Notes: a model not told the origin generated them from the letters alone. 64,000 bases of DNA from Nitrospiraceae bacterium (GCA_037442105.1 JBBIQV010000008.1:1-64000), one strand, 5' to 3'; numbered from the stretch's first letter, positions 1-55,731 are shown. Translations and numbers: made by a program.

Positions 1-20
1 TATGTGTCTTTTCCCGTGAA

Positions 21-181
21 CCGCTTACCGGGATCCGCGTTCCGCTGCCCGCATGTCGTTATCCGCGTTCCGCTCATCGCGATCCGCGAACGGCAATCCG
101 CTATCCGCACCCCGCTGCCGGCAATCAGATTGTGGACATCGGACAACGGTTGACGGACAACGGGGAACGGAGAACGGTTCT
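21..181. repeat. Heptamer-periodic repeat array (CCGCnnn units followed by CGGnnnn units), foldback-type
   Basis: 23 consecutive 7-nt units read from position 21: ccgctta|ccgggat|ccgcgtt|ccgctgc|ccgcatg|...|cggacaa|cggggaa|cggagaa|cggttct. Confidence 0.9.
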
Positions 182-197
182 TGGCCAAGACCATCGA

Positions 198-407
198 TCA
201 TGTATGCGAGAAGAGCGGCTCCATGGAGACTTCCACGTCTTTTTTCTGCACCACTTTTGATGCATCCAGTATCTCGATCTCCAGCGGTTGTCCTTTCGCC
301 GACAGATGCACGATGACTCCTTCGGCAATATCCCTGGAATCTTCGGGCTTCCCTTCGCGTAACTGAATGGTGAGGACATCCGCATCAGGCGAGTATGCGA
401 TCTTCAT
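198..407 (-). CDS. DUF2283-family protein (putative antitoxin), 69 aa
   Basis: MKIAYSPDADVLTIQLREGKPEDSRDIAEGVIVHLSAKGQPLEIEILDAS matches the DUF2283 pattern (Y...D.L.I......S......V.......G....IEI..AS); GGAGGAGG RBS just upstream. Confidence 0.85.
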   Translation of the reverse strand: MKIAYSPDADVLTIQLREGKPEDSRDIAEGVIVHLSAKGQPLEIEILDASKVVQKKDVEVSMEPLFSHT

Positions 408-578
408 ACATTCCTCCTCCCTTGAAATACCGTTCGGCGACAGGATTATAGACGGTGATCGCGCCATTCTGTCCAAGGCGTGGAAGGTTAGAAGAACCTT
501 CAGCGTCTTGCCTTCCGCCATGATGTTGTACACCCGTCCACGTTCATGAGGCTGGGTCGAAAGGACGGTGAGCTTCAT
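385..578 (-). pseudogene. DUF4258-like (RelE/BrnT-fold) toxin with internal deletion and frameshift
   Basis: N-terminus ...VLLTFHALDRMA in one frame; C-terminus ITVYNPVAERYFKGGGMYEDRILA* (459->385) in another frame overlapping the DUF2283 start; the middle is missing. Confidence 0.7.
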
Positions 579-637
579 TTTCGTTGACGTTTTTGTAAGA
601 GCATCCGCTCATGCTCAAAGATTATGCACCAGGGTCC

Positions 638-676
638 CTAACCCACATTATTTATGAGCGCTTCTGCTGCAATTGC
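638..676 (-). mobile_element. Degenerate single end of the MITE family seen at 15444 and 19810
   Basis: ctaacccacattatttatgagcgcttctgctgcaattgc is nearly identical to the reverse complement of the right end of the 15444 element (ctagcgcgcattattcatgagcacttctgctgcaatcgc). Confidence 0.75.
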
Positions 677-706
677 CGAATGCTGTCCCCCAAATCGGCT
701 CGGCAA

Positions 707-1813
707 TTATAGAGCCTTTACCTCATACCGCCCATTCCCCCACACCGCATACTTCCCCACATGCGTGTACTGCCCCAAGATCAGCAACGGCAGAAACTCT
801 TCTACGTCCCCCTCGTAGGTCACCTCGCCGACAAAGCCGCCCATGTCGTGTGAGAGACCGGTCTTCCACGAACGGCGGTCGCGGTCTTCCCAACGCACCT
901 TGCAGCTTACGGTTCGGACGGCTTCCGCTCGTTCGCCGAACGCTTTGAACTCCACATCGAGCGCGTCATCACAGTAGAAATGCGCCAACGCGTTGACCCG
1001 GTCGCGCAGGCGCTTGATGAGATGATGAAACTCGGGACGGGTGACGATCTTGCCGTCGGCTTTGAGATGCGTGGGGGTGAGGAAGCGAATTGTGATCCGC
1101 AGACCGCGATCCGCGAACCGCATTCCGCTTTCCGCTGCCCGCGGACCGCGGATGGCAGATAACGGAGAGCGGTGCGCGGGCTGCGGACTGCGGGCTGCGG
1201 ACAGCAACGAGGCGAGGCGGCGGCAGTCATCGAAGGTGAGACGGGATGGAGAAGGGCGGACCAAGCTGTCGCTGCCGGAATAGACTTCGACGGTTGCGCT
1301 ATCAGCGGCCGGCGGTCCGTTGTCCGTCAGAGCGGAATGCGGGGTGCGGGCGGCGGACAGCGGATTCAGTTGCAGCACTTGCTTGATTGTGTAACGTCCT
1401 CGGCCAAGACCGATGCCTTGGTCGCCGAGTTCACGGAACGTGACCAGGAAGTAGGAAAAATAATCGAGCGCCTTGCCGATGAGGATCAGGTCAAAGAAAA
1501 GGGCCTCGCCTGGCCGGGCCATCGTTTCGATGCCGTTCGGCGGACGCAACACGAAGGGGCGGGGGATGTCTTGGTTCAAGCTCAGCCGGTCGCTGCCCGG
1601 CGGAGGGGTCGGCTCAAAGATCTGCCCATACGGACAGGTGGCTTTCAGGCGGCAGGTGTCACGACACTCGTGTGGCGTCGGGCAGACGAGCTTCTTGAAT
1701 GTGGACCCGAAGGCGCCGCGCAACGTGTTGCCGGGATTGCGAGGGTGGAGGGCCAGCCGGTTTTTCGGCTCCAGTACAAAGCGAAATCGCGCGAGTGAGA
1801 ATGCATGGAGCAT
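707..1813 (-). CDS. cas6: CRISPR-associated RAMP endoribonuclease Cas6 (Cys-rich DUF2276-like subtype) carrying two in-frame repeat insertions
   Basis: TLRGAFG; Cys cluster CPTPHECRDTCRLKATCPY; PRPFVL; GIGLGRGRY; IRFLTP; MGGFVG; C-terminal G-rich loop HVGKYAVWGNG. Start taken at MLHAFSL (1813); the ORF is open to 1873. Confidence 0.9.
   Translation of the reverse strand: MLHAFSLARFRFVLEPKNRLALHPRNPGNTLRGAFGSTFKKLVCPTPHECRDTCRLKATCPYGQIFEPTPPPGSDRLSLNQDIPRPFVLRPPNGIETMARPGEALFFDLILIGKALDYFSYFLVTFRELGDQGIGLGRGRYTIKQVLQLNPLSAARTPHSALTDNGPPAADSATVEVYSGSDSLVRPSPSRLTFDDCRRLASLLSAARSPQPAHRSPLSAIRGPRAAESGMRFADRGLRITIRFLTPTHLKADGKIVTRPEFHHLIKRLRDRVNALAHFYCDDALDVEFKAFGERAEAVRTVSCKVRWEDRDRRSWKTGLSHDMGGFVGEVTYEGDVEEFLPLLILGQYTHVGKYAVWGNGRYEVKAL
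1097..1201. repeat. In-frame heptamer hairpin inside cas6 (15 units, 105 nt = 35 codons)
   Basis: ccgcaga|ccgcgat|ccgcgaa|ccgcatt|ccgcttt|ccgctgc|ccgcgga|ccgcgga ... gagcggt|gcgcggg|ctgcgga|ctgcggg|ctgcgga. Confidence 0.9.
1296..1365. repeat. Second heptamer hairpin inside cas6 (~10 units)
   Basis: gcgctat|cagcggc|cggcggt|ccgttgt|ccgtcag|agcggaa|tgcgggg|tgcgggc|ggcggac|agcggat; encodes PLSAARTPHSALTDNGPPAADSA on the minus strand. Confidence 0.8.
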
Positions 1814-1971
1814 GCGCTGGCTCTTCCGGAAGTCCGGCCTGAGTCGGAACGGGCTTGAACCTAGCAACTCCACCTAGGCCTGTCAAGGCATCAGCCGCCT
1901 CCTGCCTCCCTTGCTTGCGGTTTTGAGCCGATGATAAGATTCCGGCAGATCCTATTAGGAGTCACCCAGCT

Positions 1972-9983: not shown

Positions 9984-9995
9984 TCAGATTGCGGC

Positions 9996-10079
9996 AAACA
10001 GCCAATAGCGAATAGCTGATAGCAAACAGCGAACAGCAAATAGCTTCAAAGGATACCGGCTATCGGCTATTAGCTACCT
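9996..10079. repeat. Heptamer foldback element, TAGC/GCTA subtype, overlapping the lgt 3' end
   Basis: aaacagc|caatagc|gaatagc|tgatagc|aaacagc|gaacagc|aaatagc, a 14-nt spacer, then gctatcg|gctatta|gctacct. Confidence 0.9.
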
Positions 10080-15443: not shown

Positions 15444-15639
15444 CTAGCGCGCATTATTCATGACGGTTCGTCGCGAAATCGCGCAGTCGCGTCGCGAGAC
15501 GGGCACGCGGAGCCGCTTGGCCCCAAGGCGTACTTGAACAGTACGTCGAGGGGGCAAGCGGCGAGCCTGCCCGCCGAAGGCTTGTCGCAGCAGCGAATGC
15601 GCGATTGCAGCAGAAGTGCTCATGAATAATGCGCGCTAG
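15444..15639. mobile_element. MITE-like element with perfect 20-bp terminal inverted repeats
   Basis: CTAGCGCGCATTATTCATGA ... TCATGAATAATGCGCGCTAG; nested internal palindromes around ggcgtacttgaacagtacgtc; no coding capacity. Confidence 0.85.
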
Positions 15640-15841
15640 GTATTGGATCGTGCTGGCTTGCCCCTCGAATGTAGGATAGACGACCTGCCTGTCCGTACTG
15701 TAGAGTCAGCACCCAATGACAACTAATGGAGACCAATGAGACAGAACAGGTAGCGCATGGGCTGAGCGGTCGGCAACGTGTTTTCAGCGGGACGGTTGGG
15801 CGAAAAGGGTTATCCAGAGGAAATCATCAGGAGGTGCAACC

Positions 15842-18422: not shown

Positions 18423-19812
18423 CTTTACGAGACATGTCTCCGTCTGGCGCGCAGCCTGGCTGGCCGAAGCAGGGCAGCCGGTCGCAGCCATCCCCTCAGG
18501 CAAAGCGGTGGAATTCCTTCCGGCCGTGCTGGAAATCGAAGAAGCCCCGCCGTCTCCGGTCGGTCGGGCGATTCTCTGGACCATCCTGGCTGTTTTCGTG
18601 GCCGGGATCCTGTGGGCCTATTTCGGCTGGATCGACATCGTCGCCACGGCTCAGGGCAAGATCATTCCCAGCGGCCACTCCAAGGTCATCCAACCGGTCA
18701 TTCAACAGGTCGAGACGGGCATTGTGAGAGCGATTCATGTGCAGGATGGCCAAGCGGTGAAGAAGGGTGACGTGCTGATCGAGCTTGATCCGACGCAGAA
18801 CCGGGCCGACCGCGACCGGGCGGTGAATGAATACCGCGCGGCAAAGGTTGAGGCTGCACGGCTCCGGGCCCTGATCGCAGGAACGTCCACGTTCGAGGCG
18901 CCGGCCGACGTCGATCCGCAGTATATGCTGCTCCAGCAGCAGCTCTTGCGGGACCAGTTGGCCGAGTATCAGGCTCGGGTCGAGGCGGCGCAGCATCTGA
19001 TCAATCAACGCAAGGCCGCGCTGGCCCAGACGCAGGAGACCATCCGGCGGTTGGAAGCCACCGTCCCGATCGAAGCCGAACGCGCCGCAGCGTACAAGAC
19101 CCTGTTGGAGAAGCAGTTCGTCTCCAAGATGGACTATCTGCAATTCGAGGAGCAACGCATTGACAAGGCGCAGGAGCTGGCGCTGCAACGGCAGAAACTG
19201 GTGCAGGACCGAGCCACCTTGGCGGAAGCCGAGAAGAACTATGGGGCTCTGGTGTCGGAGTTTCAGCAATCGAAGCAAGCCGAACTGTTCGCGACCGAGA
19301 CCAAAACCGCCTCGCTGGCGCAAGAGGTGGTCAAAACCGAGCAACGAACCGACCTCCAACGCCTCCTCTCACCGATCGACGGCGTGGTGCAGCAGCTTGC
19401 CGTGCACACGATCGGTGGCGTGGTGACCCCGGCGCAACCATTGATGATCGTGGTCCCGCAGGACCATCCGGTCGAGGTTGAAGCCCAAGTCGAAAACAAG
19501 GATGTCGGGTTTGTCAAAGAAGGCCAGGCTGTCGAGGTCAAGGTGGAAACCTTTCCCTTCACTCTGTATGGGACGATCCCTGGCAAAGTCCTCAGTGTGT
19601 CCGACGATGCGGTGTCCGTCGAAAAAGTGGGGCTGATCTATCCCACACGGGTGAGCCTGGATCGCACCACGATCCAAGTCGAAGGCAAGCAAGTAAACCT
19701 GTCTCCCGGCATGGCGGTCACCGTGGAAATCAAGACCGGCCAGCGGCGCGTGATCGAGTATCTGCTGAGTCCGCTGCTGAAGTCGGTGAAGGAAAGCCTA
19801 AGAGAACGCTAA
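18409..19812 (+). CDS. hlyD: Type I secretion periplasmic adaptor, HlyD family
   Basis: EFLPAVLEI, DIVATAQGKIIP, SPIDGVVQQLAVHTIGGVV, LSPGMAVTVEIKTGQRRVIEYLLSPL...ESLRER. Confidence 0.95.
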   Translation: MGWLSFTRHVSVWRAAWLAEAGQPVAAIPSGKAVEFLPAVLEIEEAPPSPVGRAILWTILAVFVAGILWAYFGWIDIVATAQGKIIPSGHSKVIQPVIQQVETGIVRAIHVQDGQAVKKGDVLIELDPTQNRADRDRAVNEYRAAKVEAARLRALIAGTSTFEAPADVDPQYMLLQQQLLRDQLAEYQARVEAAQHLINQRKAALAQTQETIRRLEATVPIEAERAAAYKTLLEKQFVSKMDYLQFEEQRIDKAQELALQRQKLVQDRATLAEAEKNYGALVSEFQQSKQAELFATETKTASLAQEVVKTEQRTDLQRLLSPIDGVVQQLAVHTIGGVVTPAQPLMIVVPQDHPVEVEAQVENKDVGFVKEGQAVEVKVETFPFTLYGTIPGKVLSVSDDAVSVEKVGLIYPTRVSLDRTTIQVEGKQVNLSPGMAVTVEIKTGQRRVIEYLLSPLLKSVKESLRER

Positions 19813-19972
19813 CCCGCATTATTCATGACGGTTCGTCGCGATCGAAGCCGGCAGCGAATAGCTGATAGTAAATAGCTCAGAAATGTAGATCAACAAGCTG
19901 CTCGCTGTTCGCTACCAGCTACTCGCTCCTTGGTCTTTGCAGGAGAAGCCTTCGTGAATAATGCGCGGGTCA
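19810..19972. mobile_element. Second MITE-family copy with a heptamer hairpin as its core
   Basis: Left end (t)aacccgcattattcatgacggttcgtcgcga matches the 15444 copy; right end gcaggagaagccttcgtgaataatgcgcgggtca; core of nnnnAGC and GCTnnnn heptamers at 19849-19931. Confidence 0.8.
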
Positions 19973-20059: not shown

Positions 20060-20784
20060 AGAAAAGGGGACAGGCTACTTTTCTGAAGATTTTCGCGGCC
20101 GGCCCCGGGGGCGCAGCGTGGAAACGAGGTTCGTGAGCGCAGCAATCTGGGCTTGCCACCCGGGCGTGCCAAAGGGCGCCTGGCGGGCCACGCAGGTGCG
20201 GAGGGCCGAGAGGTCATGATCCGGCAGGGGGTCTTCCAACTGACGAGACCAGTCGGCGGGCAACGGCAGCGGGTCCACCAGCGCGGGATGCTGCAGACTG
20301 CTCCACGGCCAGTCGACGGCCCGGGGGACCAAGCCAGCCCGCACCGGGTTCAGCAGCACGTAGCGCACCACCGTGAGCAGATGGCCGTCGTGCTGAATCG
20401 GAAAACTCTTGAAGCGCCCCTGCCAGACGTGGCCGCTGCTGGCGTAGTGCCGATGATAGCGCCGGACATGACTGGTCAGCCACCACTGCATGAACGGACT
20501 GAGAGCCGCTGGGGTGTGGGGTTGAACCACGAGATGGAAATGGTTGGGCAGCAGACAGAAGCCCAAGACCTGGACCGGGAACTTCGCCTTGGCGCGGGCG
20601 AGCAAGTCGAGGAAGGCGCGGTAATCGCCGTCCTTGTGGAAGACCGTCGCGCGGCCATTACCGCGATTCAACACATGGTAGGCCTGGCCGGCGAGTTGCG
20701 CGCGGGGAATGCGTGGCATTGGAAAGGAAGCCTAAGCAACCGGCGACGGGTTTGCAACCTAAAAAGTAGCCTGTCCCCTTTTCT
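20060..20784 (-). mobile_element. RAYT/Y1-transposase element bounded by perfect 23-bp inverted repeats
   Basis: AGAAAAGGGGACAGGCTACTTTT (20060-20082) and AAAAGTAGCCTGTCCCCTTTTCT (20762-20784). Confidence 0.85.
20075..20719 (-). CDS. REP-associated tyrosine transposase-like HUH (Y1_Tnp) protein
   Basis: MPRIPR, YHVLNRGN, CLLPNHFHL (HUH), GHVWQGRFKS, RYVLLNPVRAG, WPWSS, RPRGRPRK. Confidence 0.92.
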   Translation of the reverse strand: MPRIPRAQLAGQAYHVLNRGNGRATVFHKDGDYRAFLDLLARAKAKFPVQVLGFCLLPNHFHLVVQPHTPAALSPFMQWWLTSHVRRYHRHYASSGHVWQGRFKSFPIQHDGHLLTVVRYVLLNPVRAGLVPRAVDWPWSSLQHPALVDPLPLPADWSRQLEDPLPDHDLSALRTCVARQAPFGTPGWQAQIAALTNLVSTLRPRGRPRKSSEK

Positions 20785-21732: not shown

Positions 21733-24700
21733 ATGCCCACGGAAGTTGAGTACGCGCTTATGGCAGGTCATGCCTATCGTACGACACGCGATGAGATCAA
21801 TTGGATTCCCGTTCCTCAGGGGTGGACCCCGTTTTCCCATGTGCCCGACCCCGCCACGCCATCTTTTCCCACTACCTCTGGGTTCGAAGCCATCTCATTC
21901 CAGCGCGGTGCCGAAATCGTCATTTCCTACGCAGGAACTGATCCGGCCGATCTGTTAGGAGACATCGCGGCCGATATTGGTCTAGCCACCGGCGTGGGCT
22001 CAGCCCAGCTCTTACAAGCTGCTGAATACTACCTGCAGGTCCAGGCGGCCAACCCCACGGCCAACATTACCTTCACCGGCCACAGTTTGGGCGGCGGGCT
22101 GGCTGCGCTGATGGGCGTGTTCTTTGGCAAGCGGGCGGTGACCTTCGACCAGGCTCCGTTCGCCAATTCAGCGGAGCTGAATGTGCTCACGCCGAACGTC
22201 GCGGCGAATCTCAAGGCTGATCTGCTGACCCGCGGCTATAGCGATGCCGCATTGCAAGGGCTGACCGACTTTCTCGCGCTGCGCGACGCCACTGGAGGCA
22301 TTCCGAACTCCAGTCTGGTGGACAGTATCAATGTCCAGGGTGAGTTCCTCTCCGGCGTGCCCTGGAATATCCCGGACCGCATCGGCATCCCGGTGACCAT
22401 TCCCAACAGCGCCCCCGACGTCTCGGGGTTCGACCTTCACTCGCAAGCGCTGTTGACTGCCTTTGTGCAGAGCATTCAGACGGCGGCGCCGCAACAAACG
22501 TTGCACGACGTCACCTTCAAACTTACCGATCTGATGGGGATGATCTTTTCGAACAGTTTGTTTGCACGCTCAACTGGCACTGCGAATACAACGGAACGTA
22601 ACTTCCTCGAGCGCCTTGTTCAGAATGAAACAGGCAATGCCATGGTAACCCGTTTCACCGACGATCTGTGGAAGTTGGCGAAAGATGGCGGGCTGACGAT
22701 CGCCGACGATCCGACCGCCGCCACCAATCTCGTCAGCAAAGCCCTGACCGCCTTTGCGATGCAGATGTATTACGAGAACACCGCCAACGCCGTGAATGCC
22801 AACAAGGAACTGTTCACCGAAGTGACGGGCGGCGTCCAATTTGATCGTGCCGATGTGGCCGCCACGCTCGACCAAGCCAAGGGGTACAACCTGTACTTTC
22901 AGAACTACCTCAACTCACCCGCCTTTACCGACACCGAACTGCAACTGATTCAATCGCTGCTCCCCGCACTGCGTGATTGGTACGTGCAAGCTGGCGCGAG
23001 CGGCATGAATGCCACCGATACTCTGAATAGAGGAGCCTTCCTGCTGGGCGGCAATGATGCGGATAGCCTGACCGGCGGTACGCAGGCCGATGTGCTGGTG
23101 GGCAATGCCGGCATTGACACGCTGGATGGCAGGGGTGGGAATGATGTGTTGCTCGGTGGCCCCGGCTTCGACACCTATGTCTACAACACGGGCGAGGGGA
23201 CGGATCGGATTGAAGATCCGCAGGGTCAGAATGCTGTTCTTTTCGACCAGCACCTCTTGCAGGGCGGGATTCGGCGGGTCACGGATCCGGTGAATACCTA
23301 CCGGAGTCCGGACGGGCGCTTCAGCTATGTCCAATCTGGTAGCGACCTGATCGTCAACGGCAGTTTGACGATCAAGGATTGGCAGCCAGGCCAGTTCGGT
23401 ATCCGGCTGTTTGGCGAAGCCGACTATGCGCCGGTGACGCGCACCGAGTTTCAGAAAATCGACCATTACATCCAAGTCGGCAATGCTCCAGACGGCACGC
23501 CCCTCTTTGAGCCGGTCTACGCGCCGTTCTTCGACGACAATGGGAATAACACTCAGCTCGCCTCCTGGGAATTGGGTGCGCTGACACCGCCCATCGGCAA
23601 TGAAAACAATCTGATTCACGCCTTAGGTGGCAACGATACCGTGATCAGCGGCGAGGGGGACGACCAGCTATACGGGGACGATGGTGATGATCGGTTAGAA
23701 GGATCGGGCGGTCATGACCGGCTGTACGGAGGAGCCGGCAATGATACGATCAATGGGGATACCTCGTTTGCCCTTACGGGCGGCAATGATTACCTCGACG
23801 GCGGCGAGGGGGACGATCTGTTGCTGGGCAACGCCGGATCGGACGTGATTCTCGGAGGCGCTGGGAATGATAATTTGAATGGTGATGATGGGCAGGCTGA
23901 GACGGCAGGCTCCTACGGGACTGATTTTCTGTACGGCGGTGATGGAGACGATGAATTGCACGGCGCGGGCGGCGCTGATGTGCTGGTCGGTGGAAGCGGT
24001 CAGGATCTCCTCATCGGCGACACCACCCAATATCAGGGCGGTACGCCGGAAGTCGGGGGTGGGGACGCCCTGGATGGTGGCGACGGGGATGATCAGCTCT
24101 TCGGCCTCTATGGCGATGACGTACTGTCGGGCGGACTCGGCCATGACCTCGTCAATGGCCAAGATGGGAATGATGTGCTCTATGGTGGAGATGGAAACGA
24201 TACCTTGTCGGGCGACCTTCGAGTCCGTCCTGCCAATGGGTTATACGATACGGCTGAACACCGAGGCGCCGGTGGAAATGATCTACTCGACGGCGGCGCG
24301 GGCATCGATTTTCTGTATGGCGGAGAAGGCGACGATTTTCTGCGCGGCGGGGCAGACAATGATAGCTTGTACGGCGATTACAACCCCAGTCGTTTTCCGG
24401 TATCCACCTATATGGAGATTGCGGGAGGCAATGACACGCTGAATGGGATCGCCACCGTCTGGGGCAATGATGTGCTGGACGGCGGCGAGGGCAATGATGA
24501 GCTGTACGGCGGCGATGGAAACGACATTTTGTCCGGGAGAGATGGCGACGATGCGCTTTACGGCGGCGATGGTGTCGATCGACTGGATGGTGGAGCAGGC
24601 GTGGATATCCTCGATGGCGGCTTCGGCGACGACGAACTGCACGGTGGAGATGGGAATGATTACCTTGTCGCTGGTCTTGGGAACGATGCGCTGTACGGAG

Positions 24701-42718: not shown

Positions 42719-44362
42719 ATGAAGACACGAAGGTCACGGATGATTGTCGTGGTTTTTGGAACGATTTGTTTGAGCTGGTCCCTAGCGTTCGCGCAGGATA
42801 GCCCCGGTCAGAGCATAGGCCTGTTCACTGCTGCACAAGGCAATGTGACCGTTACTCATCCAGGCACGGCTCGTGTACAACCAGTCAATGTCCATGATGA
42901 AGTTCTGTTCAGAGACGTGATTGAAACCCAAAACGAATCGAGAACGAAAGCGTTCTTTGAGGATGACAGCATTCTCACCGTTGGAGAAAACAGTAAAGTC
43001 GAAATCACCGAATACATCTATAAACCTGATCAAAACACACGTCGGACCGTGGTTAAACTCCTTCAAGGACAGCTCCGAGCGCTGGTGTCGAAGGTGTTTA
43101 CAGGATCAGGCTCGAAGTTTGAAATTCATACTCCCACGGCTGTAGCGGCGGCGCGTGGGACCTATTTCGTGGTTTGGTTCGAAGACGGAGTGAGCGGCAT
43201 CGCGAACATCGGACATTCCGGTCGCGTAGCCTTCACATCGGGGGGGACGGAGATCATTGTCGATCCGGGCAGATTTTCCACTGCTGTGGCGGGAGGAGTT
43301 CCGACACAGCCGCATGGTATCAGTACAGGCCTTCCTGGTACCGAGCACGGTGAGCTGAAGGCCGAGGAGAAGATCCAACAAACAGAGGAAACAGAGGAAA
43401 AGGTGGTGGGGAAGATTCAACAAGCAGAGGAAAAGGTAACTGAGAAAACACTGCAAGCGGAAGAAGAAGGGAAAAAGGCAGTGGAGAAGATCCAATCGAC
43501 AGAGGAAAAGGCGAATGAAAAGACACGACTAAAAGAAGAAGAGGCGACGGAAAAGAGAATCAAGCGGGTAGACAAGAACCTCGCGGCAGAGATCGTTGAA
43601 AGGACGGAGAAAAGGGAGGTGGAGAAGCACGATCGCGCGAAGGGAAAGATCGATAATGGAACGGCGGCCACTCTCGCCAGAGTCATGAAAGCGGTCGAGG
43701 GAACTGTACTAAAAGATACTCCCAAGCGCGAGGCACCCAAAGATGCCATCCGTGCATTTCATCATGCCCCACATGTAAGCCCACTGGTTTCTGCCATCGC
43801 AAAGCCGGCGCCGGGGACCAAACAGACTCGGTCCGGTAAATCCGATAACATCGAATCCGACACAGCCAAGGAAAAGCCTGTCCGTGGTCGTAATGATAAC
43901 GAGCCGGCGATCACCCAGGCGATGACCGAAGGTTCACCGACAACTTCACTTGCCTCCTCGACCGGGGCAAACCCGGCTCCTGCGGTGCCGGTCGCCTCGG
44001 CTGGGTCTGGGCCGATGGCAGGTCCGGCAGCACCAAATGTCAGCGCGGCTCCGACCACTGTGGTGCTTGCGGCACCGGCTGCCCCCGCCGTGGCGGTTGT
44101 TCCAGCGGCCCCGGTTGTGCCTGTTGTTCCGGCGGCGCCAGTGGTGCCTGTAGTTCCGGCCGCCCCTGCTGTGGCGGTCATTCCAGCGGCCCCGGTTGTT
44201 TCCGTACCAGCGCCAGCTCCGGTAACGCCGACCGTCAAAGTGGCGCCTATCACCCCCCCGGCCGTTATCTCGGGAGCATCTGAGCACATTAACCGGGAGC
44301 GTGAAAATCGGGAACGTGAGAACCGTAATCGTGAGCGCGACCGTCAGCGCGGTAGAAGATAG
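42719..44362 (+). CDS. Exported FecR-domain protein with long low-complexity C-terminal extension
   Basis: Signal peptide; D.IET...F.DDSILTVGENS, FEIHTPTAVAAARGT; Glu/Lys-rich repeats, PAAPVVPVV repeats, RE/RN tail. Confidence 0.88.
   Translation: MKTRRSRMIVVVFGTICLSWSLAFAQDSPGQSIGLFTAAQGNVTVTHPGTARVQPVNVHDEVLFRDVIETQNESRTKAFFEDDSILTVGENSKVEITEYIYKPDQNTRRTVVKLLQGQLRALVSKVFTGSGSKFEIHTPTAVAAARGTYFVVWFEDGVSGIANIGHSGRVAFTSGGTEIIVDPGRFSTAVAGGVPTQPHGISTGLPGTEHGELKAEEKIQQTEETEEKVVGKIQQAEEKVTEKTLQAEEEGKKAVEKIQSTEEKANEKTRLKEEEATEKRIKRVDKNLAAEIVERTEKREVEKHDRAKGKIDNGTAATLARVMKAVEGTVLKDTPKREAPKDAIRAFHHAPHVSPLVSAIAKPAPGTKQTRSGKSDNIESDTAKEKPVRGRNDNEPAITQAMTEGSPTTSLASSTGANPAPAVPVASAGSGPMAGPAAPNVSAAPTTVVLAAPAAPAVAVVPAAPVVPVVPAAPVVPVVPAAPAVAVIPAAPVVSVPAPAPVTPTVKVAPITPPAVISGASEHINRERENRERENRNRERDRQRGRR
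44075..44209 (+). repeat. 27-nt coding tandem repeat (5 x PAAPxVxVV)
   Basis: PAAPAVAVV PAAPVVPVV PAAPVVPVV PAAPAVAVI PAAPVVSVP. Confidence 0.85.
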
Positions 44363-55640: not shown

Positions 55641-55731
55641 GTGAAGCGGATAGCAAACAGCGGATAGCGAACAGCGAATAGCGTAAGAGAGTTCTTGCTT
55701 CCAGCTATTTGCTGCCGGCTATTCGCTCATC
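55641..55731. repeat. Heptamer foldback element, TAGC/GCTA subtype, between flgB and flgC
   Basis: gtgaagc|ggatagc|aaacagc|ggatagc|gaacagc|gaatagc, a 14-nt spacer, then gcttcca|gctattt|gctgccg|gctattc|gctcatc. Confidence 0.9.

Follow-up and report, generated by a model that had tools for sequence, protein, structure and literature searches.

Heptamer-periodic hairpin blocks in two loops of a Nitrospiraceae Cas6 as probable translated repeat passengers

The cas6 gene at the start of a Nitrospiraceae contig carries, in an open reading frame, two blocks of heptamer-periodic DNA that fall in loops of a conserved protein core. The two blocks are probably translated passengers, that is, locally copied repeat arms that grow in register in permissive Cas6 loops while selection keeps the frame. 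The window analyzed here (64,000 nucleotides) opens contig C8 of genome G000, an assembly of 2.81 Mb in 62 contigs that is 86.7% complete. Its features are listed in Table 1 together with corresponding ones at the cas loci of relatives; the large block occupies site 2 and the small block site 1.

Table 1. Positions of cas6, its repeat blocks, and associated features (window positions, or locus and position for relatives)
Feature	Position	Strand	Description
CCG-type facing heptamer array	14-184	.	Intergenic, downstream of cas6; contig begins here
Small gene, DUF2283	198-386	-	Between cas6 and array
Small gene, no family match	386-578	-	Between cas6 and array
One end of multicopy MITE-like element	634-673	+	27-nt motif, 31 copies in genome; depth peak of related contigs
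cas6	707-1813	-	368 aa, intact; two-RRM fold, Cys motif and Gly-rich loop retained
Site 2 (large)	1089-1207, periodic core 1097-1201	-	Facing CCG-type heptamer arms, hairpin
Site 1 (small)	1292-1372, periodic core 1297-1366	-	Weaker CCG-type heptamer hairpin
Complete MITE-like copies	15445-15640, 19809-19968		~20-nt terminal inverted repeats
Y1 (RAYT-like) transposase gene	20062-20782	-	PF01797 match 20357-20683; adjoins MITE copy
cas1-cas2 gaps carrying hairpin or four-helix gene	L177:7483-7860, L180:18592-18798, L182:14040-14135		In relatives
CCG-type hairpin between cas4 and CRISPR leader	L177:6549-6611, L180:19625-19715, L182:14975-15054		In relatives

The cas6 gene and its genomic setting

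The gene had been named cas6 in a preliminary description of the window, and correctly so: its product matches PF10040 at 71.8 bits against a cut-off of 25 (Pfam profile), and the top Foldseek matches of the modeled protein are Cas6 structures (4c9d, E 2e-11). From homologue comparison and our own codon model, its likely start is ATG 1813 and not GTG 1873. The closest named homologues among the matches listed are Cas6 proteins of Nitrospira and Nitrospirota, 64 to 80% identical, which suggests a Nitrospiraceae host, and the residues of the G-loop are invariant or nearly so in the homologue alignment. No NCBIfam family was matched at E ≤ 1e-10. A sequence search of the PDB with the Cas6 alignment returned a single weak Cas6 match (E 0.039), too short for placing the loops on an RNA-bound structure.

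Against four orthologues the core dN/dS is 0.084 to 0.124 (287 core codons), and in a quick core-only tree the Cas6 terminal branch is 0.093 and the median 0.15; addB was unusable as a dN/dS control, being too diverged (41% identity, dS 1.8). On these sequence comparisons, the enzyme core is maintained by purifying selection.

These values bear on the idea that cas6 is a decaying orphan in which repeats accumulated under relaxed selection. The cas6 loci of relatives hold type I-D, I-B, and III-B genes together with arrays. In the G000 assembly we found no CRISPR array and no relative of cas1, RAMP, cas3, cas7, or cas10, and tblastn of the assembly with 23 cas-locus proteins returned just a SEC-C motif and a weak CARF match. 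This absence would suit an orphan, as would the filling of both sites. The low core dN/dS and the terminal branch argue the opposite, and such inserts are also present in relatives that have cas operons and arrays (L002 and L003). Moreover, contig C8 ends 700 bases past cas6, at the point where the syntenic same-genus locus L100 continues into the operon, and the assembly is incomplete. We regard decay as very improbable.

Two heptamer blocks in loops of the enzyme

Both blocks lie where they had first been described, as strictly 7-nt periodic; the periodicity is in fact degenerate. In the large block, identity is 0.71 at lag 7, 0.63 at lag 14, and 0.57 at lag 21, against 0.18 to 0.30 at the remaining lags from 2 to 20. 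The small block has 10 units, with a lag-7 identity of 0.57 and about 0.25 at other lags, and was missed by the genome-wide period-7 scan at its threshold of 0.55. Each block consists of CCG(C) units followed by inverted (G)CGG units. The arms pair solely via the periodic core (37/53 and 19/34 positions); the right arm extends into conserved codons, and the left arm starts as an approximate reverse complement of the right arm. The array downstream of cas6 had been assigned to the same sequence type, which agrees with our data: it too is heptamer periodic (lag-7 identity of 0.55 at 21-181), and it is the best non-self BLAST partner of the large block in G000, with 83% identity over 47 nt at a distance of ~1 kb. 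The translated peptides quoted earlier for the two blocks were reproduced exactly.

Relative to the empty same-genus orthologue at the same locus (L100), the net gain is 84 nt (28 aa) at site 2 and 54 nt (18 aa) at site 1, as taken from a codon-anchored comparison with that orthologue and not from pairwise DNA alignment. The earlier count of 15 units, or 105 nt, thus stands for the periodic core of the large block but not for its gain, which is smaller because the array overlaps the ancestral loop. Likewise, the proposed condition that a heptamer array be a multiple of 21 nt to keep frame holds for growth in register but not for all insertions, the 54 nt of the small block being a multiple of neither 7 nor 21. 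An assembly artefact is ruled out, since an independent data set has a longer form of the element and homologues carry such inserts; a contig of run X1, possibly the source, spans 1013-2700 with no difference from the window.

We aligned 59 homologues out of 120 listed (447 found). As had been anticipated, the core is continuous and the homologues are gapped at exactly the two peptides. The AF2 model of Cas6 with its inserts (pTM 0.85) has core helices and strands in the same order as that of the empty orthologue P0010 (pTM 0.89), and confidence falls to 51 to 71 locally, solely at the loops, so that both inserts sit in low-confidence loops of an otherwise unchanged fold. Site 1 (residues ~150 to 173) is a β-hairpin turn of the N-terminal half, with 5 residues between strands 141-149 and 155-161 in the empty form and about 24 here. 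Site 2 (residues ~207 to 237) is the helix-to-strand linker preceding the C-terminal RRM, where the loop from the helix to the first strand of the C-terminal half grows from about 6 to about 31 residues. The model, read with general knowledge of Cas6, suggests that this is the inter-RRM linker.

A length ladder at site 2

Between fixed anchors, site 2 of the 59 homologues measures 15 (n = 3), 17 (n = 3), 18 (n = 33), 21 (n = 1), 25 (n = 4), 31 (n = 2), 32 (n = 4), 38 (n = 1), 39 (n = 4), 46 (n = 2, one being this Cas6), 52 (n = 1), or 61 (n = 1) residues. While 40 of the 59 have no lengthening, 14 of the 19 lengthened forms (at least 25 aa) fall on 18 + 7k, 4 on 17 + 7k, and 1 on neither. The binomial P value of this ladder is 8e-9, an overstatement, since kin are not independent. 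Seven residues correspond to 21 nt or three heptamers, which is therefore the smallest in-register change that keeps the frame. In the loci whose DNA was compared, lag-7 identity is 0.51 to 0.56 in the lengthened homologues L002, L003, L021, and L105 and 0.21 to 0.38 in six short ones. Peptides of this kind in the lengthened homologues thus come with 7-nt periodicity in the DNA, and together with the alignment gaps and the low-confidence loops this bears out the original proposal that a repeat family is making new protein loops. Locus L024, with a loop of base length, has a different heptamer type (lag-7 identity of 0.57) and unchanged length. Among distant homologues, whose locus titles point mostly to Acidobacteriota, the linker sometimes has other periodic peptides (L092, 0.54; L127, 0.49; L152, 0.49), and in most of these homologues the loop is nonperiodic.

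Length variation is also seen in a contig that is ~98% identical to the window (data sets X2 and X3, which give identical numbers and are counted as one). Its positions 1 to 790 correspond to 360-1149 of the window and its positions 866 to 1497 to 1141-1772, which places 84 (4 × 21) extra bases inside the site 2 block, as read from contig offsets and not from its letters. On the core-only quick tree, the insert label needs 14 changes, in line with shuffled labels (mean of 16.2; 61/500 as low), and the well-supported branches of this poorly resolved tree force just 2 changes. Repeated gain and loss of the site 2 insert seems likely from these comparisons.

Site 1 behaves differently. Its length is 18 residues in 41 of the 59 homologues, and none of the 17 longer forms exceeds 18 aa by a multiple of 7. 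A 21-nt rule for all inserts is ruled out by these lengths and by five other genes considered below. A PSPLxGEGxGEG-like peptide occupies site 1 of P0005, P0027, P0039, P0049, P0050, and P0054; judged by the peptides, this looks like a different palindromic repeat family using that loop.

The heptamer family across the genome

With N-runs masked and genes called by our own codon model, G000 contains 214 period-7 segments, compared with 0, 5, 1, and 0 for periods 5, 8, 10, and 11. They are intergenic in 169 cases, at gene edges in 21, and inside called genes in 24, one of which is probably spurious; 15 of 20 scanned host genes match named families, among them MetG, XerC, two CheB, PepN, CobB, MiaA, and a NuoG-like protein. 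Comparison of five host genes with their orthologues places the element in a variable loop, which in relatives is occupied by nonperiodic sequence or by another periodic type; the lengths are not in steps of 7. Both CheB paralogues (G000 C6:12630-13664 and C25:2538-3605) have a heptamer element in the receiver-methylesterase linker, and the two are of different subtypes. Facing arms are found in all three window elements and in many of the listed genome copies. Elements less than 5 kb apart share their subtype in 77 of 161 pairs compared with 56.5 after permutation (P = 0.006). Three further heptamer arrays in the window, at 2421-2515, 9994-10044, and 55645-55727, belong to other subtypes (TCA and AGC), the first being a facing pair before addB. 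The window also contains 27-nt tandem repeats of about four copies each at 24463-24572 and 44081-44193, the former RTX-like by its Gly-Asp-rich consensus.

A second repeat family in this genome, MITE-like and with terminal inverted repeats, has exchangeable interiors, with REP-like cargo in one copy and an AGC-type heptamer hairpin in another; it is possible that this family is a vehicle for one heptamer subtype. The Y1 gene next to a copy of this family lies between 21-nt inverted repeats, which are at about 20062-20082 and 20762-20782.

Could a trans-acting enzyme have moved discrete elements of the RPE or MITE-like kind into cas6? The blocks are palindromic and in frame, as described for RPEs (PMC10969869); some MITE-like copies carry a heptamer hairpin; the genome has three Y1 transposase matches; and site 1 accepts inserts of unrelated lengths and types. 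Nevertheless, neither block has a full-length copy elsewhere in the genome, the best non-self match being the short one to the neighboring array, and the MITE terminal motif is absent from both. No target-site duplication fits the empty site: flanking repeats are just 4 to 5 nt, and the 5-nt repeat at site 1 implies 76 nt, compared with the 54-nt net gain. Growth in place would account for both the ladder and the way in which the right arm overlaps conserved codons. Transposition of this sort is quite unlikely, and the preliminary description's comparison with a discrete RPE-like invader is not supported, since there is no conserved full-length copy, no peptide in common, and no clean target-site duplication.

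The CCG subtype and the cas locus

Only 10 of the 214 elements in G000 are of the CCG type. In the cas loci of three relatives whose operon is readable from cas6 to the array, all 13 elements are of this type, compared with 1 of 31 in the other 20 segments, G013's own cas6 insert being set aside. The three loci are kin, so the restriction is a trait of one lineage. Second CRISPR loci of the same genomes contain no CCG element in five segments. That heptamer CCG arrays mark CRISPR loci in general is ruled out, as none occurs in the second CRISPR loci of G013 and G024 or on the cas6 contig of G017.

Within the lineage, the cas1-cas2 gap exists in three states. It is empty, at about 10 nt, in L103 (L103:20461-20471) and L104; G001 and G013 have a CCG hairpin without an ORF there; and G024 has a partial four-helix-bundle gene (PF05635) flanked by CCG arms. 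A CCG hairpin between cas4 and the leader lies in the same place in three genomes, about 100 nt before the first repeat, and arrays like that at 14-184 occur downstream of cas6 in relatives. All five PF05635 four-helix genes of G000 have periodic flanks (scores of 0.48 to 0.64); the flanks reach 0.5 on both sides in 3 of these 5 genes, compared with 67 of 2,680 genes genome-wide. The elements of the window have no four-helix ORF between their arms.

A more active role for such genes can be imagined, in which the four-helix (IVS/Avd-like) cassette belongs to an undescribed machinery able to copy its own heptamer subtype in cis to neighboring DNA. The Cas6 linker would then become a quantised, strain-variable, Arg-rich loop, changing in 7-residue steps and tuning crRNA processing, and the intergenic hairpins would set processing points of the cas transcript. 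We consider this distinctly unlikely.

Other features of these loci deserve mention. The two small genes between cas6 and the array may be a toxin-antitoxin-like passenger; contigs of related organisms join 175/178 to 720 over the stretch 198-578, a weak junction with just 26 to 29 nt on its short side. Gaps in the cas operons of relatives hold HEPN/nucleotidyltransferase, PIN, MazF, or AbiEii modules. Partial cas6 duplicates lie near the intact gene in relatives (L002:2620-2880, L102:3590-3850, and L107:8175-8563, with partial matches in G001, G013, and G024); these pieces are close downstream or upstream of the intact gene and mixed with toxin-antitoxin fragments.

Hairpins in the mRNA

Both blocks form hairpins on the mRNA strand, as had been suggested. 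Each folds into a long interrupted hairpin, of -71 kcal/mol at site 2 (z = -7.04) and -30.2 kcal/mol at site 1 (z = -3.62), and in neither case was any of 200 shuffles as good; the stems are runs of 4 to 6 bp with internal loops between them. The array segment 21-170 folds with a z score of -2.95. Rfam searches over 1-2600 gave four matches, all far below the gathering score (chance hairpin/miRNA), and no CRISPR family.

These stems could act as RNA through a host enzyme or through their structure, with RNase III cutting, slower decay, or slower translation tuning cas dosage and the peptide a by-product. Besides the strong stems, three relatives point this way, with CCG hairpins that recur at junctions of cas genes and immediately ahead of the array leader, as does the RNase III gene encoded in G000. 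The internal loops breaking the stems tell against it, and so do sequences and lengths that are not conserved and a patchy presence, given the near-empty cas1-cas2 gap of L103 and L104 and the 40 homologues without a lengthened site 2. A function at the RNA level is unlikely on balance.

Cas6 enzymes generally read both the sequence and the stem of their repeat. Downstream of the closest cas6 genes lie arrays with a common 37-nt repeat, which has a 6-bp stem and a 3' handle. The best ungapped match of this cognate repeat in window 1-1900 is 18 to 19 of 35 to 37 nt, compared with a mean of 19.1 and a maximum of 22 in random genome windows; the best match in the whole genome is 24. Since the match is at chance level, the hairpins are unlikely Cas6 substrates. 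The preliminary description had nevertheless speculated that they let Cas6 regulate itself, binding or cleaving its own mRNA as negative feedback. The cas6 mRNA does contain the hairpins, in relatives the CCG subtype is restricted to this cas locus, and repeat-like regulatory elements near cas6 are described for type I-B loci (10.1101/2023.03.03.530964), though these act via cr-like RNAs on promoters and are a different thing from the cas6 hairpins. The chance-level match weighs against the idea, as do the second CRISPR loci devoid of CCG elements, the absence of inserts from most homologues, and the occurrence of the same class in unrelated genes (metG, xerC, cheB, and cobB). We consider such feedback highly improbable. 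In a literature search covering few subscription journals, no report of heptamer hairpins in Cas6 or Nitrospira, or of Cas6 cutting its own mRNA, was found among the matches listed.

Proposed origin of the blocks

Translated repeat growth in permissive loops, which we favor, might proceed as follows. The linker loop would carry a short CCG/CGG-type seed in fixed phase, to which slippage or unequal recombination adds, or from which it removes, whole 7-nt units. Changes of three units (21 nt, 7 aa) alone would keep the frame and survive, and such frame-filtered changes would produce the 18-25-32-39-46 ladder. The second, inverted arm may come from template switching or from copying of the neighboring array. 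The local subtype probably came from the arms of a four-helix-bundle (23S-IVS-protein) cassette and from its ORF-less leftovers, both situated between genes in this lineage of cas operons. Most likely, Cas6 still folds and, where an array exists, processes crRNA, with the loops near-neutral.

Several observations run counter to this account. The lengths of site 1 depart from the ladder, and several of its inserts resemble a different palindromic family; steps of 7 are absent in the five other genes; and the heptamer type of L024, with no change in length, is not explained by slippage of one seed. Neither cas6 element has a four-helix ORF, and translation and Cas6 activity are themselves deduced from the gene. 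The poor resolution of the tree and the failure to find another cas gene or an array in the incomplete assembly also count against it.

Relation to known repeats and significance

Heptameric long simple-sequence repeats of bacteria were treated by Mrazek et al. 2007 (as summarised in PMC4679880); heptamers are described in Xanthomonas and Nostoc (PMC4692102), and four-heptamer elements (n = 49) in Geobacter metallireducens are given as "intergenic and intragenic" (PMC2700814). The elements described here resemble these in period, degenerate units, mainly intergenic location, facing hairpin pairs, and occasional intragenic copies; G000 has the period-7 excess (214 versus 0 to 5), the intergenic majority (169/214), and, in the 84-nt longer allele, variation in unit number. 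The cas6 blocks belong with the heptameric simple repeats, a known but poorly explained class. Unlike the heptameric repeats described elsewhere, those of G000 are of several subtypes, of which one is tied to a single lineage of cas loci. In-frame growth in 21-nt steps can be followed across orthologues in the middle of a folded enzyme, whereas coding copies were found mainly at protein ends in the Beggiatoaceae paper. What this case adds is the quantised ladder within a single enzyme loop, together with the longer allele and a subtype bound to one locus.

Like RPEs and intragenic REPs (PMC10969869 and PMC3733652), the blocks are in-frame palindromic DNA in working genes, adding ~20 to 30 residues, sometimes twice per gene. 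RPEs, however, are discrete families of ~150 bp with a conserved peptide, and the cas6 elements are periodic sequences that vary in length in register and lack a set size, defined ends, or a constant peptide; REPs (GTAG/CGTC) are tagged stems of 20 to 40 bp, compared with 70 to 170 nt of periodic sequence in the cas6 and array elements. The ORF-bearing 23S rRNA IVS of Coxiella (PF05635; PMC4990558) likewise has variable-copy heptamers beside a four-helix ORF and facing, pairable arms, but the cas6 elements contain no separate ORF and sit within the coding region of an mRNA, where they are presumably translated. With Borg tandem repeats (PMC9879509) they have in common that fast-evolving repeats make new flexible protein segments whose frame is under selection; the Borg repeats are direct and give perfect amino acid repeats, and those here have a 7-nt degenerate unit and an inverted arm and lie on a bacterial chromosome.

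There is no new CRISPR biology in this gene unless the loops or hairpins prove functional. For annotators, it is a warning that such peptides are repeat derived. Why bacteria have many heptamer repeats, and how these spread, becomes testable at one locus. Site 2 offers a clean natural series from noncoding repeat to protein, with one loop empty or extended by 7, 14, 21, or 28 residues in an enzyme for which crRNA cleavage is an easy assay.
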